From Chiloscyllium plagiosum (lineage: Eukaryota), in the NCBI RefSeq assembly GCF_004010195.1, contig NC_057719.1, forward strand, positions 7,543,135 through 7,607,134: a DNA stretch of 64,000 nucleotides. The letters run 5' to 3'. The stretch's first letter is position 1, and every line of letters begins with the position of its first letter. The position numbers were made by a program, and so were the translations under genes. Positions 4,671 to 62,865 of this stretch are shown here, piece after piece. The notes beneath the pieces were generated by a model. The model did no database searches. It was given only the letters and a program-made list of their open reading frames with translations, and was not told the DNA's origin.

Positions 4671-5099
4671 TGATTATCAGCTTTCTTTGATTGCTGTCCT
4701 GCAAACCCAACTCCTTTCGGCCTATTCCAGATTAGAAGTAGCTCCCATTTCTGAAGGTAGGTCCCCAGACTCGAAACACCAACTCTGTTTCTGTCTACAC
4801 AGATGCTGCCAGACCTGCTGAGTTTCTCCAGCAAACTCTGTTTTCGACACAAAGGTACTTAATCAGGTCAAAAAAAATCCAAAGAACTGCGGATGCTCAA
4901 AATCTGAAATAAAAACAGAAAGTACTGGAGACACTCAGCAGGTCTGACAGCATGTTTGTAGAGAAAGCAAAATTAACATTTTAGGTCCAGTGACTCCTTT
5001 TCAGAAATGGGTCAGCAAAACTGATTATTATCTTCTGAAGAAAAATTGCTAACCAAGATTATTACCTTCCTTTTGATAGCTTTATCAATAAATAATTGC

Positions 5100-6262
5100 G
5101 GGAAAGATTTAAAAGGGACCTAAGGGACAATCTTATCACGCAGAGGATGGTGCACGTAGGGAATTAGCTGCCAGAGGAGGTGTGTGGAGGCTGGCACAAT
5201 TACAACAATTGAAAAGCATCTGAATGGGTATATGAGTAGGGAGGGTTTGAGGGATATGAGCCAAATGCTGGCAAATGGGACTGGACTAATTTAGGCTAAC
5301 TGGTCGACATGTATGAGTTGGACCAAAGGGTCTATGTCCAAGCTGTACATTTCGATGAGTCTGTGTAATGCTGGTTTTGCAAAGGTCCCAGTGGAAGCCC
5401 ATCAGTTGGTGTTTCAGCTGTGAAGAGAGTATGGAGTTGGGCTTTTTGAGTTTTGATATAGAAGACCAATTCTGGTCTCCTTCCTATTGGAAGGATGTTG
5501 TGAAACTTGAAAGGGTTCAGAAAAGGTTTACAAGGATGTTGCCAGGGTTGAAGGATCTGAGCTATAGGGAGAGGCTGAACAGGCTGGGGCTGTTTTCCCT
5601 GGAGCGTCGGAGGCTGAGGGGTGACCTTATCAAAGTTTATAAAATCATGAGGAGTGTGGGTAGGGTAAATACACAAAGTCGTTTCCCTGGGTTGGGGGAG
5701 TCCAAAAGTAGAGGGCATAGATTTGAGAGGGGAAAGATATGAAAGGGACCTAAAGGGCAATTTTTAAAAAATCTAGAACTTCAAAGGGAAAAGATCAATA
5801 TCTCCAGTCAGCTAACTGCAGCATCATACCTGCGTATGATGGTGCATGTGCGAAATGAGCTGCGAGAGGAAGTGGTGGAGGCTGGTACAGTTACAGCATT
5901 TAAAAGGCATCTCGATGGGTATATGAATAGGAAGGGTTTAGAGGGATATGGGCCAAATGCTGGCAATGAGTTTCCTCCGGGTGCTCCGGTTTCCTCCCAC
6001 AATCCAAAGATGTGCAGGTCAGGTGAATTGGCCATGCTAAATTGTCCATAGTGTTAGGTGCATTAGTCAGCGGGAAAGTGGTCTAGGTGGGTTACTCTTC
6101 AGAGGGTCAGGGTGGACTGGTTGGAACGAAGGGCCTGTTTCCACACTGTAGGAAATCTAATCCAATCAAAAAATTGGGACGAGATTAGGTTAGGATATCT
6201 GATTGGTATGAATGAGTTGGACTGAAGCGTCTGTTTCCGTTCTGTACATCTCTATGACTCTA
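5100..6262 (+). mobile_element. Cluster of CR1 3' fragments with a nested HE1 fragment (5968-6168)
   Basis: [48 protein letters not shown]; tails ending ctctatgactct. Confidence 0.85.
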
Positions 6263-7802
6263 TAACTAAGATCATGTGAGACAATTAACATTTTAAAATA
6301 TAAAACTTTTTAATGGAATGGATTATTAGCAGTGCCAAGAAATGGTACAAACTCACCAGTCACCTCACCTGTGCTCAGTTTATGATCCCCAAGAAGTATT
6401 TAATTGCGGATCACATTGCAGCCTTGGTCGAAACATCAATATGAGAGATGGATTACATAGGAGGGGTGAAAGCAGTCTCAAGGGTCTTACATCAAGGCAA
6501 CAATTCATCAAGTGTGAGCAAAACTGTTACAATGGCACGTAACAGATGGAAAACTCCACTGGTTGGGGTCATACTAAGCACAAAGGATACTAGTCCTAGG
6601 GGACGGAAATTGTCAGAAGCCAATCACTTCACACCCAGGACGTCCTCAGTGCCATAGGTCTAACCATCTTCAGCTGCTTCATCATTGACTTCTCTTAATC
6701 GTAAAATAACAAAATGAAACAATATTGTAAAAAAAGACATTTTGAAAGGTCTCAAATTTCACCTGACTTCAATGTACAATTTTGTTGCCGTAAGTTTAAA
6801 TTAGCAGGATATGATGCTGTAATTAACTGACTCGAGATATTGATCTTTTCCCTTGAAGTTCTAGATGTTTAAAAATTAACTTGTTCATAGATGTTATGAA
6901 TCACCTCTGGCAGAGGTGGACTTGAACCACCATGTCTCAAGGTTGGGTGAAATGAAACGCGAGTGTGAAGCTGCGTTTACAGTACAGCATGTTTATATTG
7001 TGTCCAAAAGTGTTAGGACACAGCTTGCCTCAAATGCAAGTCTTTGTCACATAAGAACTTTATTAAAAGGCATTGTTTTCAACTCCTGTTCTTAGAACCT
7101 GCTTTTCACTTCCTGCTTTCAAGATTTTATAATTACAGAAACATTTATTTGGAAAAGCGTAGTGTGATTAAAGGTAGCCAGCATGGCTTTGTGAGGGCAG
7201 GTCATGCCTCACTAATCTTATTGAGCTCTTTGAGGGGGTGACAAGGTAGGTCGATGACGGTCAAGCAGTGGATGTGGTGTATATGGACTTCAGCAAGGCA
7301 TTTGATAAGGTTCCCCATGGTAGGCTCATTCATAAAGTCAGGAAGTATGGGATACAGGGAGATTTGGCTATCTAGATTCAGGGTTGGTTGGCTGACAGAA
7401 GGCAGAGAGTGGTTGTAGATGGAAAGTATTCTGCCTGGAGGTCAGTGTTGAGTGGTGTCTCGCAGGGCTCTGTTCTTGGGCCTCTGCTCTTTGTAGTTTT
7501 TATAAATGACTTGGATGAGGAGTGAGTTAGTTGGGGGGTGAGTTAATTAATTTGCAGATGACACAAAGGTTGGAGGTGCTGTTGATAGTATCGAGGGCTG
7601 TTGCAGGCTGCTGCGTGACATAGACAGGATGCAGAGCTGGGCTGAGAAATGGCAGATGGAATTCAACCTGGATAAATGTGAAGAGATGCATTTTGGAAGG
7701 TCGAACTCGAATGCTGAATATAGGATTGAAGACAGGATTCTTGGCAGTGTGGAGGAACAGGATCTTGGTGTTCAAGTACATAGATCCCTCAAAGTTGCCA
7801 CC

Positions 7803-7980
7803 TACGTTTTGGATGTAGGTTTGCTCACTGAGCTGGAAGCACTGCTGAAAATTCGCCTGAGGCCCACTGAAGATATTACCTAGTAGGGTGATGAAATGTC
7901 TGGAAATGAACCTTCCAGCTCAGTGAGCAAACCTACATCCAAAACCTCAACCTGAGCTACAAATCTTCTCAAAATTCACG
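7803..7980 (+). mobile_element. Short Poseidon-type Penelope terminal-repeat insert with inverted 5' stub
   Basis: 7807-7839 is the inverted copy of 7912-7944. The 3' end is homologous to the element end at 53098-53210. TGCCACC is duplicated at 7796-7802 and 7981-7987. Confidence 0.8.
7864..7903 (+). ncRNA. Minimal type-I hammerhead ribozyme motif (degenerate)
   Basis: cca CTGAAGA t attacc tagtag ggtgat GAAA tg TC tgg: CUGANGA and GAAA cores, stem II, NUH triplet and a cca/tgg stem I. Confidence 0.65.
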
Positions 7981-8491
7981 TGCCACCCAAGTGGATAGGG
8001 TTGTTAAGAAAACATGGTGATTTGGCTTTTATTAATAGGGGGATCGATTTTAAGAGCTGCGAGATTTTGCTACAGCTCTACAAGTCCCTGGTGAGACCAT
8101 ACTTGGAATACTATGTCCAGTTCTGGTTGCCCTACTACAGGAAAGATACAGAGGCTTTGGAGAGGGTGCAAAGAAGGTTTACCAGGATGCTTCCTGGACT
8201 GGAGGGCTTGTCTTATGAAGAGAAGTTGACTAAGTTCGGATTTTTGACCTGATCGAGGTAGACAAGGTAATGAGAAGCATGGATAGAGTCAATAGCCAGA
8301 GACTTTTCCCCAGTGCAGGATTGACTGGCACGAGGGGTTATCATTTTAAGATATTAGGAGAAAAGTATAGAGGGGACGTCAGAGGAAGGTTCTTTATGCA
8401 GGGAGTTGTGAATGCATGGACTGCATTGCCAGTGGTGGTGGTGGAAGTAGAGTCATTAGGGATATTTAAGTGACTGCTGGACATGAACATG

Positions 8492-8546
8492 GACCTGATG
8501 AAGGAGCAGCACTCCGAAAGCTAGTGCTTCCCAAATAAACCAGTTG
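8492..8546 (+). ncRNA. Minimal hammerhead motif from a different PLE-type terminal-repeat family
   Basis: c CTGATGA a ggag cagca ctcc GAAA gc TA g, followed by cttcccaaataaacc. A degenerate homolog lies at about 61088-61172. Confidence 0.65.
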
Positions 8547-14576: not shown

Positions 14577-14768
14577 TGGAGATTAGAGTCAAGATTAGAG
14601 TGGTGCTGGAAAAGCACAGCAGGTCAGACAGCATCCGAGGAACAGGAAAATTGATGTTTCGGGCAAAAGCCCTTCATCAAGAATGGGCTACTGAAGGGCT
14701 TTTGCCTGAAACATCGATTTTTCTGCTCCTCGGATGCTGCCTGACCTGCTGTGCTTTTCCAGCACCAC
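14577..14768. mobile_element. Fold-back insert of two inverted Neptune-type PLE termini
   Basis: gtggtgctggaaaagcacagcaggtcag...tttcgggcaaaagcccttca mirrored by tgaagggcttttgcctgaaac...ctgacctgctgtgcttttccagcaccac. Confidence 0.85.
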
Positions 14769-17585
14769 GTCAATCAATAGCCTGTATCTCGGACTTCTCC
14801 TCTACAATATTCTCCTTTTCCTGAGTGAAAACAAATGAAAAATATTCATTTAGCATCTCTCCAATCTCCACAGAGTCCATACACAACTTTCCACTTACAT
14901 CTTTGACTGACCCTATTCCTACCCTAGTCATCCTTTTATTCATCACATATCTATAGAAAGCTATAGGGTTCTCCTTTATTCTACCTGCTAAAGAGTGTTC
15001 ATGTCCTCTTCTTGCTCTTCTTAACTCTCTCTTTAAATCCTTCCTAGCTAATCTGTAACTCTCCATCGCCTCATCTGAACCATCTTGTCTCAACGTCACA
15101 TAAGCTTCCCTCTTCCACTTAAAAAGAGATACAATTTCTTTAGTAAACCATGGTTCCCTTACCTTATCACTTCCTCCCTGCCTGACAGGGACATACGTAT
15201 CAAGGACAGCTCCACATTTCGATTGTCCCCATCCTCAGCATTCTGCTACCCCATTCTATGCCTCCTACGTCTTGTCTAATTGCGTTATAATTGCCCTTCC
15301 CCATTTATAACTCTTGCCCTTTGGCATGTACCTATCCCTTTCCATCACTAAACTAAATTATATAACCAAATTATGATCACTCTCTCCAAAGTGATCACCT
15401 GCCACTAAATCAAACATCTGGCTTGTTACCTTATCAAGTACCAGATCCAGTGTGGCCTCCCCTCTTGTCAGCCCTTCGACATACTGTGTCAGGAAACCCA
15501 CCATCCAATGTACTAAAGTTATAGCATTTCCAGTCAATGTTGGGAAAGTTAAAGTCCCCCATAATGACCACTCAGCTCCTTTCACTCCTACCCAGAATCA
15601 TTTTGCCAATCCTCTCCTCCACATCCTGGAAATTTATAGAGGCCTATAAAAAACTCCCAACAAGTGTGACCTCTTCTCTCCTGTTTCTAACCTCAGCAGA
15701 TACCACCTCAGTAGACGAATCCTCGTCAAAAGTTCTTCCAACCATCGTTATACTGTCCTTGACTAACAAGGCCGCGCCTCCCACTCTTTTACTGCCTTCC
15801 CTGATCTTAATGAAAGATCTAAACCTACAAGGTCCATTCCTGATCCTGCTGTATCCATGTCTCTGAAATGGCCGCAACATCAAAGTCCCAGGTACCTATC
15901 CATGCTGCAAGCTCACCTATCTTATTCTGGATACTCCTGGCATTGAAGTGGACGCACTTCAAGCCAGCTTGCTGTCTGCCAGCACATTCCTGTGACCTGT
16001 CCATGTCCTCCCTACTCACATCCTCCTGTGTACTGGAACTACACCGCAGGCTCCCATCCCCCTGCTGAGCTAGTTTAAACCCACCTGAATAGCACCAGCA
16101 AATTTCCCACCCAGGATACTTGTACCCCTCTGGTTCAAGTGAAGACCGCCCTGTTTGTAGAGATCTCACCTTCCACAGAATGAGCCCAATTATCCAAGTA
16201 CCTGAAATCCTCCCTCCTGCACCATCCTTGCAGCCACGTGTTCAGCTGATATCTCTCCCTATTCATTGCCTCACTATCACGTGGCACGGATAACAAACCA
16301 GAAATAACAACTCTGTTTGTTCTCGCTCTCAGCTTCCACCCTAGCTCCCTGAAACCCCTGCCTTACATCCCTATCCCTCTTTCTAACTACATTGTTGGTC
16401 CCTACATGGACCACGACTTGAGGCTGGTCATCTTCTCCCTTCAGAATCCCAAAGACACGATCTGAGACATCACGGACCCTGGCACCTGGGAGACAGCACA
16501 CCAACCGTGAGTCTCATTTGTTCCCAACAAACCTTCTATCTGACTCTCTAATTGTTGAGTCCCCAATGTCTAAACTCTCCTCCTTTACCCCTTTCCCTTC
16601 TGTGTAATAGGGGCAGACTCTGTGCCAGAGACTTGCCCCCCTATGCATGCCCCTGGTAAGTCGTTCCCCCCCAACAGTATCCAAAATGGTACAGCTGTTT
16701 TTCAGGGGAATGCCCACAGGGAATCCCTGCACTGACTGTTTTCTCCCCTTCAAACAGTTACCAGCTTCCTTGTAGCTCTTACCTACCACAGCCTCTGCCT
16801 CATGAATGATCCGAAGTTCATCCAGCTCCCGCTCCAGTTCCCTAATATAGTCTTGGAGGAGCGAGAGTTGAGTGCATTTCCTGCAGATGTGCTTGAATGG
16901 CATCCCTCACCTCAAACATCGTGCAGGAACATTCCTCTTCCTGCACTGCCATCCCTGCTCATCCTCTTATCATAAAGTAAAGAAAGAAGAGAAGCTTACT
17001 TGATGTGTTCCTGGTGTTTAAGGCTAGAGGAGGTGGATGGGTGGGAGGCCCTACAGGGCCACTCACTTATACAGCTGTGGGGTAAAAAAAACGTTCCTCC
17101 GTTCCCACAAACCTCTGCTCTCCGAGGTAAGCTTTTAAATATTTAAATTAGTGACTCACATTTCCCAACAGGCCCCAGTCCAAGCTCCCACTCTTCCTGC
17201 AGCTGAAAACAGAAATATGTTGATTGTAATCTTCCAAAATTCCCCAGACTCTGTCTGTATCTCTGAAACTGAATGGATCACTGTGAACCTGGCATTGTCA
17301 TTCAGTGCAAAAACTTGGGCAGCATCAAGAAAAGAGGAACAGCACTAGATACATAGGAACATAGGAACAGGAGAAGGCCATTCAACCCCTCAAAACTGTT
17401 TCATCATTCAATTAGATCATGGCTGATCTATGGCCTAACTATATGTACCTACTTTTGGCCCATATCACTTAATACCTTTGCTTAACAAAAATGTATTTAT
17501 TTCAGATTTAAAATTAACAAATAAACTCGCATCAACCACCTTTTGTGGAAGACAGTTCCAAACATCTACCATTCTTTTTGAGTAG

Positions 17586-19139: not shown

Positions 19140-19752
19140 GTTGTGGTGCTGGAAAAGCACAGCTGGTCAGGCAGCATCTGAGGAGTAGGAGAATCAACGT
19201 TTCGGGCAAAAACCCTTCATCAGGAATGAGGCTGTGAGCTGAGGGAGTGGTGAGATTAATGGGAGGAGGGTGGGACTGGGGGAAAGGTAGCTGAGAGTGC
19301 GATAGGTGGATGGAGATGGGTGTAATGGTGCTAGGTCAGAGAGGAGAGTGGAATGGATAGGTGGGAAGGAAGATGGGAGAAAGTGAGGACTGCAGATGCT
19401 GGAGATCAGAGTCAAGAGTGTGTTGCTGGAAAAGCACAGCAGGTCAGGCAGCATCCATGGAGCAGGAGAATTGATGTTTCGGGCTAGAGCCCTTCATCAG
19501 GAATTCCCTTGGGTGACTGGGAAGGAAGATTGACAGGTAGGACAGGTCATGAGGGTAGTCCGGGAGTTGAAGGTTGGAACAGGGAGAAGGTGGGGGGAGG
19601 GGAAATTAGGAAACTGGTGAAATCCACATTGATGCCGTGGGGTTGGAGAGTCCTGAGGTGCCTGCTCCTCGGATGCTGACTGACCTGCTGTGCCTTTCCA
19701 GCACCACACTCTCGACTCAAATCTCCAGCATCTGCAGTGCATACTTTCACCT
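19140..19752. mobile_element. Composite of nested and inverted Neptune-type PLE 3' ends
   Basis: Three copies of the tgctggaaaagcacagc terminus. Minus-strand hammerhead motifs lie at 19196-19224 and 19473-19501. Peptide TLQPHGINVDFTSF matches the GIY-YIG ORF end at 33312-33430. Confidence 0.85.
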
Positions 19753-19906
19753 ATTCATTTGTTGTGGAGAGTGAGAGTGTATGTGTTTGGATGATCTGGA
19801 AGAAGGGAAAGATGGAGGCCTTCATTGGACAGAAAGACCTGATGGCAAGAGACGTAAAGACACAAGGACTGCAGACATGAGAACAGAAGGGGGACATGGT
19901 GGGGAA

Positions 19907-39560: not shown

Positions 39561-40079
39561 TCATCAAACAGGATCTTTTACATCCACTGGAGGGGGAAGA
39601 TGGAGCCTCAATTTTAATATCAAACAGAGAACGCTGGAGAAACTCAGCAGGTCTGGCAGCATCAGTGGAAAGAGAAACAGAGTTAGCATTTTGAGTTCAG
39701 CATTTTGCTTCTTCAGAACTGCATTTCCTCAATTTTAATGCCACATCCTAAAGGCAGAACTTACGACAGCACAGCACTTCTGCTGAACTGCACTCTTTCA
39801 ATATGTGGGTGAATTTCTAGAGTGGGACTTGAACCTACAACCTTCTGACTCACTAAGCCACAACCTAAAGAAGCAATATGGATTGAAGCTACAAAGCATG
39901 CAAGATTGAAGGTATAAGTGTTTCAATAGACTGAAACTGAAATGATAAACTATCAAATTACTAGGGCAAAGAGAAACATGCTTGAATCTGCAACTCATAC
40001 ACATACTTAGCACTCGTCAAAACCATTGCCATCTTTCTCCAAATTTGACATTAATAGCCCTCCAATTGTAATGGCACCC

Positions 40080-45545: not shown

Positions 45546-47029
45546 AATCGTCATTCAGAAACTGAGATTGATGTATTTTTGGTCACGAATCATGAAATAT
45601 GTGGATAGGATGAGAAAATGGATTTGAGACAGAGCTAAGTGCTGTTCTGATTAAATATCAGAGAAGGCTTGATGGGCAGAATGGCCTACCTGTTTTTATT
45701 TCCTAGTCAGCAATGTGTGATGCCAAAAACAACTTGTATTTCTATAGTTCCCTCAGTGCAGCAAACCGTCCCAAGAGACACACTTTTGACACAGAGCCAC
45801 AAAAGGAGGCATTAGTAGAAACAAAAGCAGAAATTGCTGGAAAAAATCAGCAGATCTGGCAGCATCTGTGGAAAAAAAACAGAGTTAAAATTCTTCAGAA
45901 CACTACCAGACTTGTGTCTTTTTTTCAGCAATTTCTGTTTTTGATTCTGATTTCCAGCAGCTGCAGGTTTTTTTTGTTAAGGTATTAGCAGAGGTGGTTG
46001 GAAGCATAACGGCTCAGTGTGAAGTATTAGCTTTAAGGAAGAGAGTGATAAAGAGACAGGGTGACTTATGGAGAAACATAGAATATTTGTGGCACACAGA
46101 GAGAAGTTCTTTTATGTCTTGTCCCATCTGAAAATTAACTATTCATTTCAGTTCTACTTTTCCAAATCTTGGTCCACAACCTTGTGAATTTGTACAAACA
46201 TACAAATTAGGAACAGGAGGGGCCCTTGAACCTGTCCCCAATCAACAAAATCATGGCTGATTACTTCACAATCAGCTTCGATAATCTTGTTTGTTAGGAA
46301 TCTGTTCACCTCTGCCTTAACAAGATTACAGGCTCTGCTTCCATCAACATTTGAGGAAGAGAGCTCCAAAGACTCTCAAACGTCAGTAAGGAAAGAATTT
46401 CTCTTTAATCTGTCTTAAGTGTGAAACCCTTTATTTGTAAACAGTGACCTCTAGTTCTACATTCTCTCACAAGAGGAACTATCCTTCCCATGTCTCCCCT
46501 GTTAAGACCTGTCAGGATTTTACCTTTCAATTCTTTACTACAGAGTGATGTCGATCGTGGATTGTTAAGTATATTCATGGCTGACATTGAGAGATTTTTA
46601 ATCAGTAAGGGAATCAAGGCTTATAGCAAAAAGGCAGGAAAGAGGATTTGAGGCTTACCAAGCAATCCATGTTCAAATGCAACAGGTTCTGGACAATATT
46701 CAGGCTTGGGGTGATAAGTGGCATGTAAGCCAAACAAAGACCAGGGAATGACCATCTAACCACCGGCCCTTGACATTCAATGACATTCATCACTGAATCC
46801 CCTACTATCAACATCCTTGGAGTTAACATTGACCAGAAACTTGCCATATAAACACAATGGCTACAAGAGCAGGTCAGAGGCTAGGGTAGTCTGGTAAGTA
46901 ACTCACCTTCTGACTCCACAAAGCCCATCTGCCAGCCACAAGGCACAAGTCAGGAATGCGATGGAATACTTTCCACTTGCCTGAATGAGTGCAGCTCAAA
47001 CAACATTCAACATTTGGAAATGAATGGTC

Positions 47030-49881: not shown

Positions 49882-50359
49882 AGGGAGACCGTGCTGGGCT
49901 TGCTCGAGGCTGAGAGTCTGCGCTGAGCTTCCTCGAGGCTGGGAGTCCACTTTGGGCTTCCTCGAGGCTGAGAGTCCACACTGGGCATCTTTGAGGCTGA
50001 GAGTCCGCGCTGGGCTTCCTCAAGGCTGAGAGTCTGCACTGGGCTTCCTTGAGGCTGAGAGTCCGTGCTGGGCTTCCTCAAGGCTGAGAGTCTGCACTGG
50101 GCTTCCTTGAGGCTGAGAGTCCGTGCTGGGCTTCCTTGAGGCTGAGAGTCCGTGCTGGGCTTCCTTGAGGCTGAGAGTCCGTGCTGGGCTTCCTCGAGGC
50201 TGAGAGTCCACGCTGGGCATCCTCAAGGCTGAGAGTCCGCGCTGGGCTTCCTCAAGGCTGAGAGTCCATGGTGGGCTTCCTCGAGACTTGGAGTCTGCGC
50301 TGGGCTTCCTTGAGGCTGGGAGTCCGTGCTGGGCTTCCTCGAGGCTGGGAGTCTACGCT
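49882..50359. repeat. 29-bp minisatellite, array 1 (about 16 units)
   Basis: Unit approximately GGGCTTCCTYRAGGCTGAGAGTCCGTGCT. Confidence 0.95.
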
Positions 50360-50881
50360 GTATTATGGTTGTAAAATAGTATTATGGTTGACATGGACAT
50401 GGCTGGTCAAAGGGCCTATTCTTGTGCTGTACTGTTTTAAATCCACTAATCTGGTAAATCCTCCTTGACTGGCTTCCAACATCCTTCAACAGTTCAAGAG
50501 CAGCATGTCTAATTATACAATCTAATTATTTTAAACGTAATGAAGGTTTCTGCCTTTGCTACTCAAACTCCACACTTGTGCCTTGTAGACGGTGGACAGG
50601 CTTTGGGGAGTCAGGGGTGAGTCCAGCAGTATTCCTAGTGACTGCCTGTTCTTTTAGCTACTTATTTGTTATTATTTTAATTAATCTGCTCTGACATGTT
50701 AGTATTAGAATTAGGTTTATTGTCACATATACTCAAGTTGAGTGATACGTGAGTACAGTGAAAAGTGTACAAATTTGCCATTTCCTGTGCCATCTTAGGT
50801 AAAAAGATACCTAGGTACAAAATCCTAGATATAAATTTAAAGAAATAATACTAAAGGTTCACATTACAGTCTTTCTAAAGC

Positions 50882-51560
50882 AGGGAGTCTGCACTGGGCT
50901 TCCTCAAGGCTGGGAGTCTGTACTGGGCTTCCTCGAGGCTGGGAGTCTGTACTGGGCTTCCTCGAGGCTGGGAGTCCACGCTGGGCTTCCTTGAGGCTGG
51001 GTGTCCACATTGGGCTTCCTTGAGGCTGGGAGTCTGTACTGGGATTCCTCGTGGCTGGGAGTCTGTGCTGGGCTTCATCAAGGCTGGGAGTCTGTGCTTT
51101 GCTTCATCGAGGCTGGGAGTCTGGGCTGGGCTTCCTCGAGGCTGGAAGTCCACATTGGGCTTCCTTGAGACTGGGAGTCCACACTGGGCTACCTCGAGGC
51201 TGGGGGTCTGTACTGGGCTTCCTCGAGGCTGGGAGTCTGCGCTGGGCTTCCTCGAGGCTGGAAATCCACATTGGGCTTCCTCGAGGCTGGGTGTCCATAT
51301 TGGGCTTCCTCGAGGCTGGGAGTCCGTACTGGGCTTCCTCGAGGCTGGGATTCCGCGCTGGGCTTCCTCGAGGCTGGGAGTTCGCGCGGGGCTTCCTTGA
51401 GGCTGAGAGTCCGTACTGGGCTTCCTCGAGGCTGGGAGTCCACTCTGGGCTTCCTCGAGTCTGGGAGTCCATGCTGAGCTTCCTCGAGGCTGGGAGTCAA
51501 CTCTTGGCTTCCTTGGGGCTGGGAGTCCATGCTGGGCTTCTTCAAAGCCGAGAGTCTCTG
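50882..51560. repeat. 29-bp minisatellite, array 2 (about 23 units)
   Basis: gggctt recurs at 50896, 50925, 50954 and 50983; unit approximately GGGCTTCCTCGAGGCTGGGAGTCYRYRCT. Confidence 0.95.
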
Positions 51561-51781
51561 GAGTGCATGCTGGCTCAACTCTCCACCACTGATGCCATCC
51601 AAGGAATGTAGAGAGAAAAAGAAAGAAAAAGAAAAACAAACAAAAAGAGAATAAGGAAGAAAAGAAATTGACTTAGATGCCTATTCCACTGCCATCTTTA
51701 AGGGGTTGCTAATAGGTGTGAAAGAGAAATAGAGATGCAGAATGGGTGTAAATTGAGGTGTTAAGATTAAAATGCAATAAG

Positions 51782-52092
51782 GGGACGTGATGGCCTAGTG
51801 GTATTATTGCTAGCCAATTGATTCTATTACCTAGGTCATGTTCTGGGGACCTGGGCTTGAAACCTGCCGTGGTGAATGGTGGAACTAGAATTCAATGAAA
51901 ATCTGGAATTAAAAGTCTAATGACGTTGATTGTCACAACAAAAACTCATCTGGTTCACTAACGTCCTTTAGGGAAGGAAATCTGCCATCCTTACCTGGTC
52001 TGGCCTACATGTGACTCTAGACCCACAGCAACGTGGGTAAGTATGGGCAATGAATGCTGGCCTATCCAGCCATGCCCCCATCCTGTGAATAG
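51782..52092 (+). mobile_element. tRNA-like SINE (family with LINE-B tail)
   Basis: gtgatggcctagtggtatt...gggcttgaaacctgcc...gggcaatgaatgctggcc...catcctgtgaat. Confidence 0.75.
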
Positions 52093-52204: not shown

Positions 52205-53211
52205 TTGAGGGTTAGGGTGTAGGTTTGCTTGCTGAGCTGTAGGTTTGATATCCAGACGTTTCATTACCTGGCTAGGTAACATCATCAGTGGCCATCTCCA
52301 AGTGAAGCAAAGCTGTTGTCTCCTGCTTTCTATTTATATGTTTGTCCTGGATGGGGTTCCTGGGGTTTGGGGTGATGTCATTTCCTGTTCATTTTCTGAG
52401 GGGTTGATAGATGGTATCTAGATCTATGTGTTTGTTTCAACGTATTCAAGAAGAATGGATACTCTAAAAATGCAGTCCGCAGATTCCTCAAGAACAAACC
52501 ACGACAAGCAAACCAAACACAGCCAGAAACCCTAACCACCTTACCATACATCAAAGAAGTTTCAGAAATTACAGTCAGACTACTAAGACCCCTCAGAATC
52601 CTAGTAGCCCACTAACACTCTCAAACAAAAACTAACAAACTTAAAAGACCCAGTACAACCCATGGACAAAACCAACGTCATCTACAAAATTCCATGCAAG
52701 GACTGCCACAAACACTACGTAGGACAAACAGGAAGAAAGTTAGCCACCAGGATACACGAACACCAGCTAGCCACAAAAAGACATGACCCTCTCTCCCTTA
52801 TAGAGATGCAGAATGGGTGTAAATTGAGGTGTTAAGATTAAAATGCAATAAACCACCATTTCGACTGGGACAACACATCTATCCTGGGACAGGCTAAGCA
52901 AAGACATGCCAGAGAATTCCCAGAGACCTGGCACTCCAACCACAACGCCATAAACAAACACATAGATCTAGATGCCATCTATCAACCCCTCAGAAAATGA
53001 ACAGGAAATGACATCACCCCAAATCCCAGGAACCCCATCCAGGACAAACATATAAATAGAAAGCAGGAGACAATAGCTTCGCTTCACTTGGAGGTCGCCA
53101 CTGATGTGTTACCTAGCCAGGTAATGAAACGTCTGGATATCAAACCTAAGCTCTGCGAGCAAACCTACACCCTAAACCTCAACCTGAGCTATAAACCTTC
53201 ACCAACATTGC
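52205..53211 (+). mobile_element. Poseidon-type Penelope element, 5'-truncated, with inverted 5' pseudo-LTR
   Basis: Hand translation gives TLPYIKEVSE, TNVIYKIPCKDCHKHYVGQTGRKLATRIHEH, HHFDWDNTSIL and NAINKHIDLDAIY. 52205-52437 is the reverse complement of 52952-53182. AACTGATAATTGA is duplicated at 52196-52208 and 53212-53224. Confidence 0.92.
52252..52291 (-). ncRNA. Minimal type-I hammerhead ribozyme motif
   Basis: Minus strand reads cca CTGATGA t gttacc tagcca ggtaat GAAA cg TC tgg. The sister copy at 53098-53136 (+) lacks the core A9. Confidence 0.78.
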
Positions 53212-53900
53212 AACTGATAATTGATTTCAGAAAGAAAGGAGAACATGCCTCCATCTACATCAATGGAACTGAGGTTGAGAGGGTGGACAGCGTCGGGTTC
53301 CTTGGAGTGACAATAACCGACAACTTGTCCTGGACTTGCCATATAGACGCCACAGTCAAGAAGGCACAACGACGCCACTTGTTCCTCAGGCGGCTCAGGA
53401 AATTTGGCATGTCCATAACGACCCTCACCAACCTCTATAGATGCACCATTGAAAGCATATTATTCATATGCATAAAGGCCTGGTTTGGCAACTGCTCTGC
53501 CCAGGACTGTAAGAAAGTATACTAAGTGATGTGCACAGCCCAGACCATCATGGATGCCAAGTTTCTATCCATGGACTCCATTTATACAGCTCGCTACTGC
53601 AGGAAGGCTGCCAACATCACCAAAGACCCATTGCACCCTGGTAATGAACTCGTACAATCTCTTGCAGAAGAGACAAAAGTCTGAACACACACGCACACAA
53701 CACATCTCTAGCCTCAAATAATGCTGAACTCGCTAATGCTGACCTCGCCTAGTGCATGCCCTGTGCAATGTAAACTGTATGCCTCAGTCTAAGTCTTTTT
53801 GATCTGTACATCCTTACTTCCTATGATCTGCTTGTACTGCTCGGAAATAAAGCTTTTCATTGTACCTGGTAAATGTGACAATAAATCAATCAATCAATCA
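53212..53900 (+). mobile_element. Rex1/Babar LINE 3' fragment
   Basis: LIIDFRKK...INGTEVERV..FLGVTITDNLSW..HIDATVKKAQRR..FLRRLRKFG..NLYRCTIESIL; tail gtgacaataaa(tcaa)n. Confidence 0.88.
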
Positions 53901-53954
53901 TTTGTTAGTGGTGCAGGCTCGATGGGCTGAATGGCTTTTTCTGCTCCTATAGCA

Positions 53955-54275
53955 AAGGCAATGGTCTAGCAGTATTACCACTCAACTGTTTATCCAGAGA
54001 CTCAGGTACCTGTGTTCAAATCCCGCCATGGCAGGAATGGTGGAATTTGAATCCAATAAAAATCTGGAATTAAGAGTTTAATGATGACCATGAAGTCATT
54101 GTCAAAAAAAACCTACTTGGTTCACTAATGCCCTTTTAGGGAAGGAAATCTGCCATCCTTACCTAGTTTGGCTTACACATCACTCCAGATCCACAGCAAT
54201 GTGGTTGATTCTTAACTGTTCTCTGGGCAATTAGGGATTGACAATAATTACTGGCCCAGCTAGAGATGCATTTAT
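53955..54275 (+). mobile_element. tRNA-like SINE (family with LINE-B tail)
   Basis: Homologous to 43125-43585 and 51782-52092. Confidence 0.72.
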
Positions 54276-54814
54276 GATTTTTTTTAAAATGTTCTCCTGG
54301 GGAAAGGAATGCTCAGTTCAAGGTGCAAGCATGGTTTGTGTAGTCTCTCTTGGTGAAGGGAATGTTCAACTCAAGAGATTTGATTGATCTGATTTATTAT
54401 CAAGTGTATTTTATTACAAACTACAGTGAAAAGCGTTGTATAGTGTCACCACTCTCCGGCACCATCTTAAAACACAGAAAAATAAATCAAAACATAGAAT
54501 ATAAAGACAGAAAAAGAAAGAAATTATGTTCAACTTTACAGTCCATCCTGTTAAATGCTCAGCTATGGCAGTATCCCCTTGACGTTCAGGTGGAACAAGA
54601 ATCGTCACTTCGTTGATCGACACTGCTGCCACTGTGAGTCCTCACTGGACCTCACCAATGCAGCCGCACTCATGCTGCCACATCCCGCACCATCCAAACT
54701 CAACTCCACTGCTGCCAAGAGACTGCTCTGGGCCCAAATCTGCCTCCACCACTGCCTCCATCAATCTGCACTGGATGCAGATGCCACGAGGAACCCAAAC
54801 TCAGCTTCACCCAT

Positions 54815-55660
54815 GGCATGGTGGCTCAGTGGTTAGCACTGTTGCCAGGGACTAGGGTTCAATTCCACCCTTGGGTAGCTGTCAGTGTGGGGTTTGCACG
54901 TTCTCCCCTGTATCTGTGCGGGTTGCTCTCCAGGTGCTCCAGTTTCCTCCCACAGTCTAATAACAGATGTGCAGATTGGGTGAATTCGTTATGATAAACT
55001 GCCCCATAGTGTCCAAAGATGAGCAGGTCAGGGTGGATTGGTCATGCTAAATTGCTGTCAGTCAAAAACTGTGGTGCTGGAAAAGCACAGCTGGTTAGGC
55101 AGCATCTGAGGAGAATCAACATTTCAAGCATAAGCTCTTCATCAGGAATGTGATCAGTTGGGTGCGTAGCCTGGTGTTGAGGAAGGAGATATGGCTGTAG
55201 TAGTGGGTCTGCTTCAGATTGTAGCTGAAGAGCTTAAGGGCAGAGGAGATGACCTAAGAGGTGAAGAGACAGAGAGAGAGACGCACTGAGATTCTTGTAG
55301 AAGGAGGAGGTGAACTTTTTCAAGGTGGGCATCCTTGGTGCAGGCTCGAAGGGTTGAATGGCCTACTCCTGCACCTATTGTCTATTGTCGATTGTCTAAC
55401 TAGGAGAAAGTGAGGACTGCAAATGCTGTAGATCAGAGTCAAAAAGGGTGGTACTGGAAAAGCACAGCCAGTTAGGCAGCATCCGATGAACAGGAGAGTT
55501 GATGTTTTGAGCATAAGCTCTTCACCAGGATTGCTAAATTGTCCCATCGTGTCCAAAGATGAGCAGGTCAAGGTGGATTGGGCATGTGAAATTGTCCCAC
55601 AGTGTCCAAATAATGTGCAGGCTAGGTGGATTAGCCATGGGAAATGAGGTGTAATGTGGA
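54815..55660 (+). mobile_element. HE1-like SINE with a tandemly repeated unit of about 50 bp, split by a Neptune/CR1 composite insert (55055-55531)
   Basis: Head gcatggtggctcagtggttagcact; unit aaattg.ccc.atagtgtccaaagatg.gcagg..aggtggatt.g.catg seen about 4 times; TGCTAAATTG at 55045-55054 and 55532-55541. Confidence 0.75.
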
Positions 55661-55699
55661 TGGGGCAGGGTCTCTCCTGAGGGCCAGTGAGCACTCTTC

Positions 55700-56000
55700 C
55701 CGCACCGTGGGGAATGCCATGATGGATGGTGTTGTGGAAACCGGGGGTTAAACATGGCGGCGGGAAGATGAAAGACTACAACGCCCGGCATGCCCGCGGG
55801 AGGAGCGAGACCCGGATGTGGCGCTGGGTACTCTCGCGAGATGACTGGGGGTGGAGGGAGGGAAGGCGCTGACGCAGCGCCTCATTTGCCGGACCCTCCC
55901 TATAGCGGCAATTGAAGCTCCATTCGGCAGTATATAAGCGCTCGCTGGAAGAGGACGGACGGCTTTCCCAAGCCCGCTCCAGGCAGCACCGCCAAAATAA
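55700..56000 (+). promoter_or_regulatory. CpG-rich Pol II promoter of GTF2A1
   Basis: The only CpG-dense unique stretch in the window. It holds YY1-like AACATGGCGGC (55751-55761), ZNF143/Staf-like ACTACAACGCCCGGCATGC (55775-55793), ETS CCGGATGTG (55812-55820), palindrome TCTCGCGAGA (55832-55841), CRE-like TGACGCA (55870-55876) and TATA box TATATAAG (55931-55938). Confidence 0.85.
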
Positions 56001-56107
56001 AATATTAGTCGATTTTTATTTTTGTTTTAAAAAGAAAATCTTTTTCTTGACCAAAAAAACAAACCACCTCATCTGGATATTTCATTTAAATTCTCCTCCG
56101 TATCCAC
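55960..56107 (+). other. Predicted 5' UTR of GTF2A1 exon 1
   Basis: Lies between a TSS inferred about 30 nt after the TATA box and the ATG; no upstream ATG seen. The TSS position is inferred only. Confidence 0.55.
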
Positions 56108-56137
56108 ATGGCGAGTTCGGCCAACTCAAACCCGGTG
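56108..56137 (+). CDS. GTF2A1: First coding exon of general transcription factor IIA subunit 1 (TFIIA alpha/beta)
   Basis: ATG GCG AGT TCG GCC AAC TCA AAC CCG GTG = MASSANSNPV, in Kozak-like context (ccacATGG), followed by a phase-0 donor GTAAGA at 56138. It resembles the vertebrate TFIIA N-terminus as I recall it (human MANSANTNTV-PKLYRSVIEDV) and lies just downstream of a CpG-rich TATA promoter. Exon 2 was not seen in the window. Confidence 0.85.
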
Positions 56138-59100
56138 GTAAGATTTTTTTTTGTGTGTTGAGCGTGGTTGTTTTTTTTAATCCTCCGAAAATAAAAGAGA
56201 CTTTAAGATGGGAACCATTATATATATTTTGAAAAAAACATTTATACTTTTCATTAAAATCTGTTTTAACCACTACCCAGGATGAAAACGATTTTTTTTT
56301 ATTTCTACTTCCTTTTTTCTTAAAAAAAACAAAGGTGAAAAGTAGTGTTTTGTTTGTTTTTCTCTGACCTGGGGAAATTTAAGCAAAATTCCGCAAAGTG
56401 AGAACTTGTTGGAATTTGAAAGTGTGGGTAGGGGGGGAGGTGAAGGAATGAAACAATTTTTTTAAAAAGCAAGATTTGACTCCCTATTCCCCCAACAGCC
56501 TTTTTAAATAACTAGACCTAAGCAAGCCATATCTTGAACAAACTGTGGGGATTTTTGTTTTGTTGAGAGCTGTGGCTGGAGTTTTACTTTTTACTGGCAG
56601 ATGGAGGAAAAAACCCCCCACATTTTACATCTATCTCTCCAGACAATTTCTTTTGTCTTGATTAGCAATTACATTTTTAAGTTGTGGTGCTTGCTAAAGT
56701 GGCTTGGGAAAGAAATGGAATGGGGAGGAAGATTCAATTGTTGGGTTGCTCATCATAAAGAATGTTAATAAAAAAACTCAATTCATGAGGTGACTTTTGC
56801 CTGAAAATTACAATTCAGAAGCTACTTTAGCTGTATACATGGGTGGGTGTGTGTGGATCAAGTTTGAAGCCAAGAAAAGCACTAAGATTTTGACTTTTTT
56901 GAGTAGATCTGAATATTACAAACTTACTTCAGATTTCAAGTTTAAAAATATAAACTTATTTTTGAACAATTTTTAAAAATAAAACAAACACCAACACAAT
57001 CCTCTAGAGAAACACAGGGTGATGGAGGCTGCACTGTTTGCTGATGAACCATTTTGTTTCCTGGCTGATTTTTAAAAAACATTCTGTTGCTGGTCTGAAG
57101 GTGAGGCATGAGATGCTTTCTTCCCCTTTCTCAGGGCCCTGAAGATATTTTACTCCTATTTTTCACCCTCCTCTGCCTTTTGTGGTAAAAGTCTGGTAAA
57201 TTGGTGTCTGCAGTCCCTCGTCTCTGCTCCGTAAGCTAATGTTTTGTGGTGGAGGATGGCCTGCTGTTTGTGCCTGCCTTCCCCCTCTCTCCTGTCTTTC
57301 CCCTCGCTGCTAGACGGCCTCCTCTATTATAATCTCGGTTGCATGGTGGGGATGTGCTTGCCAGCTCTACGTCACGAGATGAGGGGGCCCTCTGCGTATA
57401 AGAGGCCAGACTGGTGAGGGCTGTGCAAGCAAGTGGGGAGAGGGAGGCTTAACAGCAGCTGCAAGGCCCAAGGGTAAACAGCCTGCTGACATGTGTTCCC
57501 TTGATCTGTTTATGTTGTGACTCATCTACCTTGACAAACCTTCCTTTGCCTTCCATCCTTATCCCTAATTGTCTAATTTTTTTTCTCTATTTTTCTTGTG
57601 GGAGGCCGTGAGCGTTCCTTGAGCGGTGAGCTCTAGTGTTCAGTCTGTGAATGTGCATTCCAACCTGCAACAGCCCCTTTTTCAGCACAGCATTTTTCTT
57701 TGCATCTGTAATTCAACCAAGATGCATTAACAATAAACCATTTTTTCTAAAATGAAAATACTAATGTTGAAAATCTGAAGCAAATGTTTTCTCAATTCAA
57801 CTTTTTAATTCCATTGGCATGTTGTTAACTGTTTAGCCAGAATGATACTTTCTCTAAATGTAGAGAAATACTTAAGTGGGAGCTGGGGTTGAATTTGCAT
57901 AACACACGGTGGGCAATAAGGGCAGGCCCATGGGATGAATTGGATAGCTTTTTCAAATTTCAGTTGGAGAATATTTAATTCTCAGTCTTAGTGAGGTGAA
58001 TCATCTAATTACACAAATGTCTATGTAGCATTAAGGTAAATATAATTTTGTTTTCATTAGATGTTTTACTGTTATTGCTCTTATTTTAAAATGTCATCTT
58101 TACGTTAGTTTAAACTCTTAGCATTTTCAGGGGACTTGTAATTAAAACAGTTTTCTGAAAATAGTCTGGCAGCATTTAAGATGCTGCCTGACCTGTGCTT
58201 TTCCAGCAACACATTTTCAGGGTTTAAGAAAACTTCCCCAAGTACAACTGTTCCTGTAAGGAGGAGGAACACAAGTAGATCACTTAGTTTCTCGGCTCGT
58301 TTCTGCTATTTAATTAGGTCATGCTGGTTTGTAACACTGTCTCCACTCGTCAGTCTTTACTCGTTGCCATTCTTGCTAGGCAAAATTTTAAATTGATGCA
58401 ATGTTCCTGATATTTTGGAGGCTGGATTTTCAGTACCCTTTGAGTAGAAATATGCTCTAATTTTTGCTTTGACGTAGCTCTCATTTTAAGACTATGCCCT
58501 TGTACTATGGACTTTTGAGCAAACAAAATGGCTGCTTTTCTACACTGTTTGCCTCAATTATTTCATTAGTAGTTCACAGCCATTTAAACAAGAGGTTACA
58601 AGCTAATGTTATGCAACCTGTTGTCATGGTGTCCTTGAGTGTAGCAGGCTAAGTTGTATCCCTTCTGAAACAAATTTACATTCAATGCCTATAATTCCAT
58701 ATGCTACTCCAAATAAACGAGCAAATTCTGTTAGAACAGACACATTGCTTCCTCACTTTTGAATTTCACTTACTTTTGCATAAAAGCTAACACTTAATCA
58801 TTTTTGTTGTACTTTCTAGACCTGACTATTGCCCACGCACCTGGGTGTCTCATACTTTATACTAGTAAACTTGATGCTGACTAAAACTTGTCTTAAACTT
58901 CAATCAGCAAGTCCATCAAATCTGTGATTGCTGATTTGCATTGGCTCCCATTCAAAAGTCTATACACTCCTCCATCCTCTCAACTTGTTAGACACCTACA
59001 CTCCTCCAACTCTGGCCTCTTGTGCCTTCCCAATTAAATTGCTTCACCATTTATGATTCTACTGTCTCTTTCCCCAAACTCTGAAATTCTCTCCTTATCT

Positions 59101-59879
59101 CTTTTCAGAGGCACTCTTTAAGACTTGCTTCTGATCAGATTTTTGTCATCTGACCTAAAATGTTGTGATGCATTGTTTCATAATGCTCCTGTGAAGTACC
59201 TTGGAATATTGCAACTACTTTAAAGAAGTTATATAACTTGAAAATCTTGTTAAATCCTAGTTTGTTTTCTGGGCACAAACTCCTAAGCAGTACTTATTCT
59301 GTCACCACTAACAACACTTTTGATTTGTCTTTCTCAAGTGGATGCTCTCACTTTTCAATGTTAAATTTTTACATGATTTGTTTTTTTCCACTCAATCTGC
59401 CCTGTGCATCTTGGAAATTTCCAATTCACGTCTGCAACTTCAGAATCAGAAGTAACAGTATAAAGGTGGCAATGTGGCCCATTGTGTCTGTGACTTAAGT
59501 TGCTGCGAGGCGACAGTGCTCATCTGCTTTATCCAAATCCTTGCCTATGGTTTCCATCCAAATAATCATCTGATGCCTTCCTCAATTGAATTCCATCTCA
59601 ACGGTTTGCTGAGTGAAAAAAGTTTTTTGTTTCACTATTGTGCTTTTTGCAGACTGTTCCCTCTAATGTTCTTTTTTGCTAGTGGTGACAGTTTCTGCCT
59701 ATCTACTTTTAGTGCACAAGATTTTGAAAACCTCAATGTCCCCTTCGCTGCCTTCTCTCCAACCTTCTCATAACCAAACTCCTTGTCTTTGGAACCAACC
59801 TTGTAAATCATTTCTGCACTCACCAATTTGTTTACTTCTTAAAGTGGCATCTGCAATACTGAGAAACTCAATCACCTTT

Positions 59880-60880
59880 CAGCAGGAGACAGGAGGAGTG
59901 GAAGGGCATTTCTCAATGGAGAACTGACCAATGGTGTTCCACAGGGATTGTATTGGGATTTTGGTTATTTGTGATATACATAAATGATTTGGAGGAAGGT
60001 ATAGGTGCTCTGATTAGCAAGTTTGTAGATGACACTAAGATTGGTGGAGTAACAGATAGTGAAGGGGACTGTAAGAGAATACAGCAGAATAGAGATAGTG
60101 TCGTTTGGCAGAGATATGGCAGATGGAGTTCAAGCCTGACAAATGCAAGGTGATGTATTTTGGAAGATCCAATTCAAAAGCAAACAATATGGTAAATGGA
60201 AAAGCCTTGGCAAAACTGTACAGGGAGATCTGGGTGTTCATGTCTATTGTAGCTTGAAGGTGGCAACGGGCATTGATAGTGGTCAAGAAGGCAGATGGCA
60301 TGCTTTCCTTTATCAGATGGGATATTGAGTACGAGAGTTGGCTGGTCATGTTATAGTTATATAGGACTTTGGTTTGGCTCCATTTGGAATTTTGCATAGT
60401 TTTAGTTGTCACCTTACCCAAAGTTTGTGGATGCTTTGGAGAGGGTGCATAGGAGAATCACCAAGATGTTGCCTGGTATGGAGGACACTCTCTATGAAGA
60501 GAGGTTCAGTAGATTAGGGTTATTTTCATTAGAAAGATGGAGGTTTGAGGGGACCTGATTTATAAAATCTATAAAATCATGAGGTATAAACAGGGTGGAT
60601 AGCAGAAGCTTTTTCCCAGAGTGGTGGACTTAATTACTAAGAGTCACAAGTTCAAGGTGAGGGAAAAGTTTAAGGGAGTTGTGTGGAAAGTTCTTTATAC
60701 AGAGGATGGTGGGTCCCTGGAATGTGTTGCTGGTAGAGGTGGGCATAGTGGTGTTTAAGATGGTGCAGGGACCAGAGGGACACAGATCCTTAGAAAATAA
60801 GTGACAGGTTTAGATAGAGGATCTGGATCAGCGCAGGATTGAAGGGCCTGTTCCTGTGCAGTAATTTTCTTTGTTCTTTG
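59880..60880 (+). mobile_element. CR1 RT-3' fragment in the intron
   Basis: LFVIYINDLEEG...ISKFVDDTKIGG; tail aattttctttgttctttg. Confidence 0.85.
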
Positions 60881-62645
60881 AAATCTTAAACTTTCGGAGC
60901 GGTTCCTCATTTTGAATTAGTGAAAGAGGGCACGCAGGCAGAGAGATGATATTTGCATCTTGATCGAAACTTGTATCTCCTTTCTAACAGTTCTCTATCA
61001 TCCATTTTAAATTTGTTCACTCCACTTACACCAATTAATGATCTTTTGATCTTTGCCTTTAAACTGTCAGTGTGCGCCCTCTCACTGTACCTGACAAAGG
61101 AGGCTGCCTCTGAAAGCTTGCAATTTCAAATAAACCTCTTGAACTATAACCTGGTGTCATGTGATTTTTAAACTCTGCTTCTAAACAAGATTATGGCTGA
61201 TCTGCCCCAGACTGCAAATTTCTTTCATGCCAGCTCAACATAGACATCAACTCTTGATGTCTTCAAAAAAAACTGGTTTCCCACCTCTTAAAAATGCTAT
61301 CACTGACCCTGTCTTCATAATACTCTGGAATAGAGGATTCCAAGTGTTCAGTAACCTTGGAGAAGAAATTCCTGCATGTCTGTTTTAAATGTGTTCCCTT
61401 ATTCTGTAACTTTGACATTTTCCAAACTAGTCAAACATAATCCTGTCATGCCTTTTCAAATTCTGTTTCAATAATCTCATTCTTCTAAACTCAAATTAAT
61501 AAAAGCATCTAACCTGTTCAGCTATTTATTACCTCAAATGGTGATGGATTATCTGTGCAAGCTCTAGTTTCAATAAACTACAGCAGTAAGTGCTTGACAA
61601 TAGAAGTCTGTCTGCAGACTGGTTGTAGTATGACAATATGTCCCAGCTGTTAATTCTGCTGGTGTTCAGATCCAATCTGTAGAGGCCTGGGTTTGAGCAT
61701 CCTGAGGGTTGAGCTGGTTCCACTTTAGGGCTCATGTGGTGCAATAGTCATGTCCCAACCTATGGGCCCAAAGATCCTGGTTCAGCCTTACCTGTTCTGG
61801 ATATGTCATAACATGTCTGAGCAGGTTCACTTTAGAATAGCTACAGAGTATTTGTTGTCAGCTTAGTCCTGTACAATAGTGAGACATGGTCTACTATAAG
61901 TGAAATGAGCTCAAAAATTTCACTAGCATTTTTTTGCGTTCTCTGGATTCAGTGGGAGGAACATGGAACAGGCAGTAGTGTCCTGCTGGAAGCTAGCTTT
62001 ATAAGCATTCCGGCATAACCCCTGCACAATCACCTGATGAACTGGATGCAATATCTGGATGACTGCAAATTTCCTCCCTCTCTGGCTCTTATTTTCTCAA
62101 CACTTAAATGGGCAAGGTCCAAGAGGAGAAAAAAGAATGCTACCAAGGCAATGAAGCTCTTGTTGAAATGTGGCAGAAGTGACAATGCCAGGAGGAGCTT
62201 GCTACCAATTGGTTAAAATAATAACTTATTCACCAAGCTACACTGAAATTGTGGAAGTGCCAGTTGTTTCTGTGCCAGTAATTGAGACTGCAGAATGGTA
62301 TGTTGCCTCCTTGGTGTTACTGGAAGGCATTTGTTTACGTGAAGGTGAAGAACCAGAGTGGTGCTTGGCATCACAGTGGTATCAATGATATAGGAAAAAA
62401 AAGTCCTGGAGAAAGTAGATTTTGGGTCCCATTCAAGATCTGTACGGTAGCAATCTCAGGATTACTCCCAACGTCAAGTGCTATTGAATATAGATATATA
62501 AAGTTTGAGTTTGAACATGTGACTGAACTAATGGTGCAAGATTGGATGTCTTTAGGTTGGATTGCTGGTACCTAGGACCATTCTGGGGTAGGTCTGACCA
62601 GTCATAGAGATGTACTGGACGGAAACAGACCCTTCGGTCTAACTT

Positions 62646-62865
62646 GGAGAAAGTGAGGACTGCAGATGCTGGAGATCAGAGCTTAAAAATGTGTTGCTGG
62701 AAAAGCGCAGCAGGTCAGGCAGCATCAAAGGAACAGGAGAATCGACGTTTCGGGCATAAGCCCTTCTTCAGGAATCCTGAAGAAGGACTTATGCCCGAAA
62801 CGTTGATTCTCCTGCTCCTTTGATGCTGCCTGACCTGCTGCGCTTTTCCAGCAACGCATTTTTAA
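62646..62865. mobile_element. Fold-back Neptune PLE-terminus insert with two back-to-back hammerhead motifs
   Basis: Arms of about 90 bp (62683-62772 and 62776-62865) are near-perfect reverse complements. The minus motif is CCTGAAGAAGGGCTTATGCCCGAAACGTC (62744-62772) and the plus motif lies at 62776-62804. Degenerate TSD ccttcggtctaac / ccttcagactaac. Confidence 0.9.

Follow-up and report, generated by a model that had tools for sequence, protein, structure and literature searches.

Hammerhead ribozyme motifs in a 64-kb window of the Chiloscyllium plagiosum genome as probable passengers on the ends of Penelope-like elements

A 64,000-nucleotide stretch of the genome of the shark Chiloscyllium plagiosum (NCBI RefSeq assembly GCF_004010195.1, contig NC_057719.1, positions 7,543,135 to 7,607,134 of the forward strand; this whole stretch is called the window below, and coordinates count from its first letter) contains numerous hammerhead ribozyme motifs. 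These are minimal type-I hammerheads inside the pseudo-long terminal repeats (pLTRs) of Penelope-like elements (PLEs), and it is very probable that they are passengers, that is, mostly decayed end pieces of endonuclease-bearing (EN+) PLEs of three lineages. This assignment, proposed in an earlier prediction made from the sequence alone, is supported by the parent open reading frames (ORFs) of two families, a and b, and by the insertions, which have tails and target-site duplications and often come with an inverted 5' piece or in partial tandem; they are 5'-truncated.

Hammerhead motifs, their families and parent elements

Both strands were scanned with a strict descriptor (CUGANGA, 0–2 extra nucleotides, stem II of at least 3 bp, GAAANNUH). 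The 7 matches, each denoted by the position of C3 of the core, are 7867+ and 52288− (family a), 8495+ (family c), and 19223−, 19500−, 55145−, and 62771− (family b). All 7 have an extra base between A9 and 10.1, and none of the 9 pieces of the fourth family, d, retains both boxes around a paired stem II. The window is repeat-rich, with self-matches covering 49% of its length. The relaxed search gives some room to the reading that the motifs are chance matches: with one core mismatch permitted, the 12 matches in the window compare with a shuffle mean of 1.6 (maximum 5), and one of them, 21744−, belongs to no family. However, 40 dinucleotide-preserving shuffles contained on average 0.05 strict matches (maximum 1), or none in any of the 40 if stem II of at least 4 bp was required, and all 7 strict matches occupy the same place within repeat families. 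A chance origin is refuted for the strict set, and its probability for the motifs at large is negligible.

Profile searches of the window with nhmmer, seeded with 3 (a), 9 (b), 2 (c), and 7 (d) pieces, recovered 4, 16, 2, and 9 pieces, respectively (b and d were sorted by eye out of profile cross-hits), of which 17 contain a whole recognisable core by manual count (a 3, b 8, c 2, d 4). Every motif named in the original prediction was located in its place or within a few bases, although several of the copies turned out to be broken and the profiles added pieces missing from its list. No hammerhead was among the 11 matches at E≤10 that the Rfam covariance models, which it had proposed as a check, gave for the window.

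The importance of the hammerhead core positions is well established. Among the 17 whole-core motifs, 7 retain both boxes and stem II, and 4 (52288, 62771, 19223, and 8495) have in addition a helix I of at least 2 bp and the palindrome, ACGU or AGCU; the palindromic 15.1–16.1 site, corresponding to the dimer helix III, is kept in 4 of the 7 strict matches and lost in 19500, 55145, and 7867. The lesions include A9>C in 33208, C3>U in 14680, G8>A in 61091, a mismatch in stem II of 62777, and the loss of both the palindrome and helix I in 19500; several of them, located in the palindrome and in helix I, are of the CG>TG/CA type. Copy 53101 lacks A9, but A is restored in 31 of the 37 RNA reads over this position in run X12 (single-cell polyA, about 2 in 100 read); hence, the family a core is intact, whereas this copy is not. 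Only two motifs, 7867 and 52288, satisfy the published descriptor (Fig. S7 of PMC4209133), which requires at least 3 bp of helix I, a length reached by 2 a copies; helix I is 2 bp long in b and in the c copy 8495, as the same paper lists for D. virilis. Minimum-energy folds of monomers and homodimers, which are non-decisive, include stem II in a and b, not in c, and contain no catalytic fold in a or b.

The families, originally taken to be four independent ones, are not all separate. The b profile hits d pieces and vice versa, and the two families show homology along about 90 nt that extend beyond the core on its downstream side; thus, there are three lineages, one with two branches, namely, Poseidon-type a, Neptune-type b with its sister d, and a separate, putatively Neptune/Nematis-type c. 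As judged by eye, the bases of stem II and of the first pair of helix I are not the same in b and d, yet remain paired.

The three family a motifs derive from two insertions. A Poseidon-type GIY-YIG ORF ends just upstream of hammerhead 53101; as in the Penelope/Poseidon elements, its C-terminal GIY-YIG domain (a sub-cutoff Pfam match) has a CCHH motif, there is no CX2-5CxxC linker, and the hammerhead lies in the pLTR behind. This copy is truncated downstream of the reverse transcriptase (RT) core, and its clade is read from the endonuclease and linker features, the zinc linker CX2-5CxxC being what divides Neptune/Nematis from Penelope/Poseidon (10.1101/2021.04.23.441226). In family b, the Neptune-type ORF (33312–34245) carries a CX4CX2C linker before a C-terminal GIY-YIG domain and ends upstream of 33208. 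The nearest protein is an RT-GIY-YIG protein of Chiloscyllium punctatum, with 84% identity; the ORF also matches, in two blocks with 79–86% identity, a protein (P0001) that has RT and GIY-YIG Pfam matches below the cut-offs. The endonuclease tail is retained at two further b loci, and Pfam returned 0 families for the Neptune endonuclease of the window. Family b presumably belongs to Neptune rather than Nematis, following its earlier label, the linker being common to both.

As originally noted, c and d have no parent ORF in the window, according to tblastn searches with four Neptune-type proteins. Family d appears to belong to the PLEs by virtue of its homology to b. A c-like core was found in two contigs, L001 and L002, from one metagenome scan, with 31 of 34 bases the same, 23 of which were forced by the search pattern; it has a 5-bp helix I and the same stem II with a different loop. 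L002 encodes a zinc-linker GIY-YIG ORF about 750 nt upstream of this core, and L001 contains an inverted PLE RT piece beside it; these contigs are relatives, not the parent. An AATAAA follows the c core at a distance of about 10–20 nt in the shark c copies as well as in L001 and L002 (window 8530–8540, L001 1020–1030, L002 1385–1395).

Insertions and the ends of the copies

The insertions and fragments in the window are as follows.

4746–4849, plus strand: family d stub, decayed hammerhead (A9>G, no palindrome)
4904–5009, minus strand: family d stub, decayed core, absent from the original prediction
7804–7982, plus strand: family a insertion, inverted piece 7804–7839 (minus) and pLTR piece with hammerhead 7864–7903, which meets the published descriptor and has a non-palindromic helix III site
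8489–8545, plus strand: solitary family c stub with an intact core (C3 at 8495) and palindrome, followed by AATAAA; helix I of 2 bp
14577–14775, no single strand: head-to-head fold-back of family b with C3>U in the minus arm and a plus arm that begins within the core
19142–19754, minus strand: family b partial tandem with inverted 5' piece (19661–19754, plus), hammerheads 19500 (decayed) and 19223 (intact) spaced 277 nt, endonuclease C-terminus 19556–19657
21754–21925, no single strand: family d head-to-head fold-back, two incomplete cores
25529–25634, plus strand: family d stub, both boxes kept, stem II and palindrome decayed
27761–27891, no single strand: family b fold-back, plus arm beginning in stem II
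31043–31383, no single strand: family b, inverted pLTR piece 31043–31123 (minus) and endonuclease C-terminus/3' region 31119–31383 (plus)
33093–34245, minus strand: 5'-truncated Neptune-type element with RT thumb, CX4CX2C linker, GIY-YIG endonuclease, and pLTR; hammerhead 33181–33209 with A9>C; one frameshift near 33965
39616–39721, minus strand: family d stub, G12>A, no stem II
42546–42631, plus strand: family d stub beginning in stem II
43286–43401, plus strand: family b stub with tail, beginning in stem II
45818–45972, no single strand: family d inverted pair, core deleted
52205–53200, plus strand: single Poseidon-type insertion, tail on one side, 13-bp target-site duplication; inverted piece 52205–52437 (minus) with intact hammerhead 52252–52291, truncated GIY-YIG ORF 52440–53000 (plus), hammerhead 53098–53136 without A9
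55060–55535, minus strand: family b subfamily tandem, two pLTRs from −5 with an ORF-start-like stretch between them, flanked by a target-site duplication of 10 bp; the hammerheads, 383 nt apart, are 55145, without the palindrome, and 55528, with two changes in the core
58179–58217, plus strand: family b fragment from downstream of the hammerhead
61085–61173, plus strand: family c stub, G8>A
62646–62868, no single strand: young head-to-head fold-back of family b with arms 94% similar and a one-sided 40-nt tail; minus-arm hammerhead 62744–62772 intact, plus-arm 62776–62804 with a stem II mismatch

All the insertion hallmarks of EN+ PLEs, namely, a tail, an inverted 5' piece, a partial tandem, and a target-site duplication, are present in this set. 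Head-to-head pairs occur at 7804, 14577, 19661, 21754, 27761, 31043, 45818, 52205, and 62646, partial tandems at 19142–19657 and 55060–55535, and the two target-site duplications flank the insertions at 52205–53200 (13 bp) and 55060–55535 (10 bp). In the fold-back at 27761, stem II and a downstream part of this pLTR share a short match at the junction (27815–27821), suggestive of priming guided by microhomology.

At the 3' side, the ends of the b pieces fall at either +81 to +92 or +104 to +126 relative to C3, with AT-rich flanks. Piles of loose ends, 40 nt apart, are seen at 62646 (688 reads in X12 and 965 contigs in X8) and 62686 (212 reads), where the flanks are AT-rich and show low agreement, in line with the tail and the two RT start sites of the anole Poseidon (PMC11167929). 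By eye, conservation between b and d is higher over the stretch from +45 to +110 (for example, 33100–33165) than in the hammerhead; a short self-complementary stem in this stretch, directly preceding the first 3' end point, is a candidate for a binding structure or for one at which RT starts.

At the 5' side, 6 of the 15 b pieces that reach the pLTR (one piece ending at −38 was excluded) start between −10 and −1 from C3, compared to 0.25 expected under a flat stop rate, for an interval that was picked after the data had been seen; when the 62771/62777 fold-back was taken once and the long copy dropped, the count was 5 against 0.3 expected. The remaining starts fall in the core (4), downstream (3), and further upstream (2), and none of the 15 lies at +26 to +30, around the cut site. 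Comparison by eye indicates that the a copy 7867, the c copy 8495, and six d copies have only 3–10 nt upstream of the core in common with their kin, with no long reference available for c or d. At 55060–55535, the pLTR continues from −5 into sequence that we infer to be ORF-start-like (P0001 lacks the N-terminus), and the 10-bp duplication flanks the entire unit. Whichever reading of the 5' boundary holds, the cut site does not set the copy ends, so that the template was uncut or re-joined. A splice acceptor was also considered as the 5' boundary, given that in D. virilis an intron ends 5 nt before C3 (PMC2377424, PMC4209133), and was rejected: there is no AG at this place and no shared upstream exon.

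Several additional features of the window were observed. Within the Poseidon endonuclease ORF, positions 52800–52851 are an exact copy (52/52) of 51729–51780, located 425 nt left of the insertion, which could reflect a local template switch, later repair, or an assembly artefact. This Poseidon copy sits in an older ORF resembling those of long interspersed nuclear elements (53190–53525, 51829–52036), a piece of which, 53001–53522, matches Pfam ALKBH8_N. GC-rich tandem arrays with a 29-nt unit, containing long frames on both strands, occupy 49885–50360 (16 copies) and 50883–51540 (23 copies), and an assembly gap of 467 N is located at about 38810–39275.

Copy number, RNA data and the origin of the copies

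The two published-descriptor matches in 63.5 kb correspond to 31 per Mb (95% range 4–114) and the 7 strict matches to 110 per Mb (95% range 44–227). Extrapolated from this density to the shark genome, which we take to be a few gigabases in size, a load of about 10^5 motifs is plausible. Summed contig depth (X8) reaches 0.83–0.89 million in the Poseidon bins, 4.95 million in the b bin (shared with another repeat), and 0.20 million in the c bin, compared to about 21–30 in single-copy bins; being a summed depth and not a copy number, it hints at 10^4–10^5 copies. Published counts per genome amount to about 9,000 for Xenopus and about 4,000 for coelacanth (PMC4209133), and up to 120,000 canonical motifs are given for axolotl (PMC7229834), so the shark figure is high but not without precedent. 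The very large ribozyme load originally proposed stands with respect to motif copies but not to working ribozymes, considering the core or CpG-type lesions of most copies and, for the intact ones, the lack of an intact partner in cis or burial in hairpins.

The reading under which the dispersed copies are an active load that cuts host read-through or intronic RNA, alone or as trans-dimers, is improbable. It is compatible with the retention of all features in 4 of the 17 whole-core motifs and with transcription: of the 6,569 X12 reads on the 10.3-kb stretch 52440–62780, 96% continue into other flanks, which implies that paralogous copies are transcribed, on both strands. As 9 of 30 bins have no depth, other loci are the source of most reads; family b has reads of both strands, and a high copy number could favor trans-dimers. 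However, two of the 4 intact motifs are located in fold-backs, the arms of which pair throughout (about −174 kcal/mol for 62646–62868). Of the other two, 8495 is solitary and the tandem partner of 19223 is decayed; neither of the two direct tandems has two intact partners. RNA ends at the NUH site, which the original prediction suggested looking for, were sought in X12 only, where there was no place with many read starts or ends and no end pile-up, a weak negative because a library of this type is a poor test of RNA ends; run X13 contributed 0 reads. In the available text of the published work, monomers do not cleave and dimers are slow (PMC4209133; review PMC6765202), and the anole Poseidon motif cleaves only with protein, is dispensable for insertion, and has no RNA ends at its site in public data (PMC11167929). 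Over the Poseidon ORF (52440–53129), RNA reads are 3–4 times more frequent in one direction, which could be due to element transcription or to oligo-dT priming on the A-rich strand. Still less credible is the possibility that the stubs and tandems are independent, non-autonomous retrozymes spreading via circular RNA cut at tandem hammerheads. The spacing in the two direct tandems, 277 and 383 nt, falls within the 150–450 bp range of retrozymes (PMC7229834), and a 2026 preprint derives retrozymes from pLTRs, with one chondrichthyan positive (10.64898/2026.07.22.740005). Nevertheless, the hammerheads here belong to the minimal rather than the canonical form. The two tandems have dissimilar spacers, made of 3' region of the element or of ORF-start-like DNA, the unit ends are away from the cut site, and none of the 9 tandem-repeat rows overlaps a motif, with no head-to-tail array containing a hammerhead.

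Under the passenger reading, reverse transcription would begin at the two 3' end points, run through the uncut (or re-joined) hammerhead, and often halt on reaching the 5' edge of helix I, where the element RNA most likely starts. Halted reverse transcription would produce the stubs of 85–130 nt, fold-backs would come from self-priming or second-strand priming, and tandems from template jumps. By analogy with characterized elements, the ribozyme may be active, slowly, only in the RNA of active master copies, as a dimer via the ACGU/AGCU palindrome or with the protein of the element; inserted copies would decay neutrally, CpG sites first. We put forward tentatively, as possible rather than probable, a more specific proposal: in sharks, the 5' edge of helix I is where PLE transcripts start, and the 5' pLTR, on internally primed reverse transcription, yields a strong-stop-like cDNA of 85–130 nt that integrates alone, giving some 10^5 stubs and fold-backs from several unrelated PLE lineages. 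If so, the ribozyme does not set the ends of integrated copies, and the shark genome is a very large natural record of a PLE replication intermediate. That the elements are as assigned but their 5' boundary is a nick made by their own endonuclease at ATT, or an RT stop, and not the RNA start, is rather unlikely; the 4 b pieces that halt inside the core speak for it, whereas the c and d stubs start at the same relative place without a common ATT, and the pLTR at 55060–55535 runs on from −5 into ORF-start-like sequence, as a transcript 5' end would.

Several results weigh against the passenger reading or the mechanism attached to it. X12 contains no begin or end site of the kind expected if the RNA starts at the 5' boundary, and the interval from −10 to −1 was chosen post hoc. 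Helix I of family b consists of 2 bp, a U-U mismatch, and one further pair, and b fails the published descriptor because this helix is so short. The original prediction held that stem II stays paired: pairing is kept in 90.9% of the family b cells, but covariation within b is limited to 1 of 7 pairs (one G-C to A-U change in two related copies), with a score equalled by 27 of 500 shuffles, which is not significant. Finally, no parent ORF is directly tied to the shark c and d copies, the likeness of L001 and L002 being limited to the largely pattern-forced motif.

The role of the hammerhead in PLE transposition is called unclear in the cited sources, and for insertion it is dispensable in the one in vitro system (PMC11167929). 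Thousands of shark insertions allow copy starts and ends to be read against the cut site without bench work, and the 5' boundary at helix I is the part worth following. For ribozyme surveys, it matters that the commonest family in the window escapes both the published descriptor and Rfam. The likelier effect on the host comes from long double-stranded hairpins formed by the fold-backs, not from cleavage.

Relationship to known hammerhead-bearing elements

A literature search on sharks combined with hammerheads or Penelope found no dedicated study of shark PLE hammerheads in the portions of the sources available. Non-LTR retrozymes (PMC7229834; 10.64898/2026.07.22.740005) resemble the shark copies in their type-I hammerheads and their link to PLEs, as far as described there, but the window contains no unit array with canonical hammerheads. 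The architecture of the insertions is that described for PLEs (PMC3846280; 10.1101/2021.04.23.441226), including 5' truncation, partial tandems, solo pLTRs, head-to-head inverted pLTRs with palindromic junctions, a one-sided tail of 30–40 bp, and short target-site duplications; solo pLTRs are attributed to recombination or deletion in the available text of these sources, whereas the shark ones often look like products of short reverse transcription.

The Poseidon element of Anolis carolinensis (Frangieh et al. 2024, PMC11167929) is similar with regard to the two 3' end points separated by about the length of a tail, AT-rich targets, and insertion from unprocessed RNA without RNA ends at the cut site; clustering of the 5' ends at helix I is seen in the shark and not reported for anole Poseidon in the available text. 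The closest known system is the minimal hammerheads (min-HHR) in the pLTRs of metazoan PLEs, in particular, fish Xena, Poseidon, and Neptune (Cervera and De la Pena 2014, PMC4209133), which are of the same kind. According to the text available, they share with the shark motifs the type-I core, the extra base after A9, the lack of a real helix III, and the 4-nt palindrome, as well as the presence of several families per genome, mostly as single motifs on truncated copies, and opposite-strand pairs. The differences are that the 56 motifs of that study (Fig. S3) include no cartilaginous fish, that helix I of family b is shorter than its descriptor permits, and that the shark density, estimated from 2 matches, is on its face higher than in the Xenopus and coelacanth genomes analyzed there. 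The kind has been known since 2014, and the window adds members to it.

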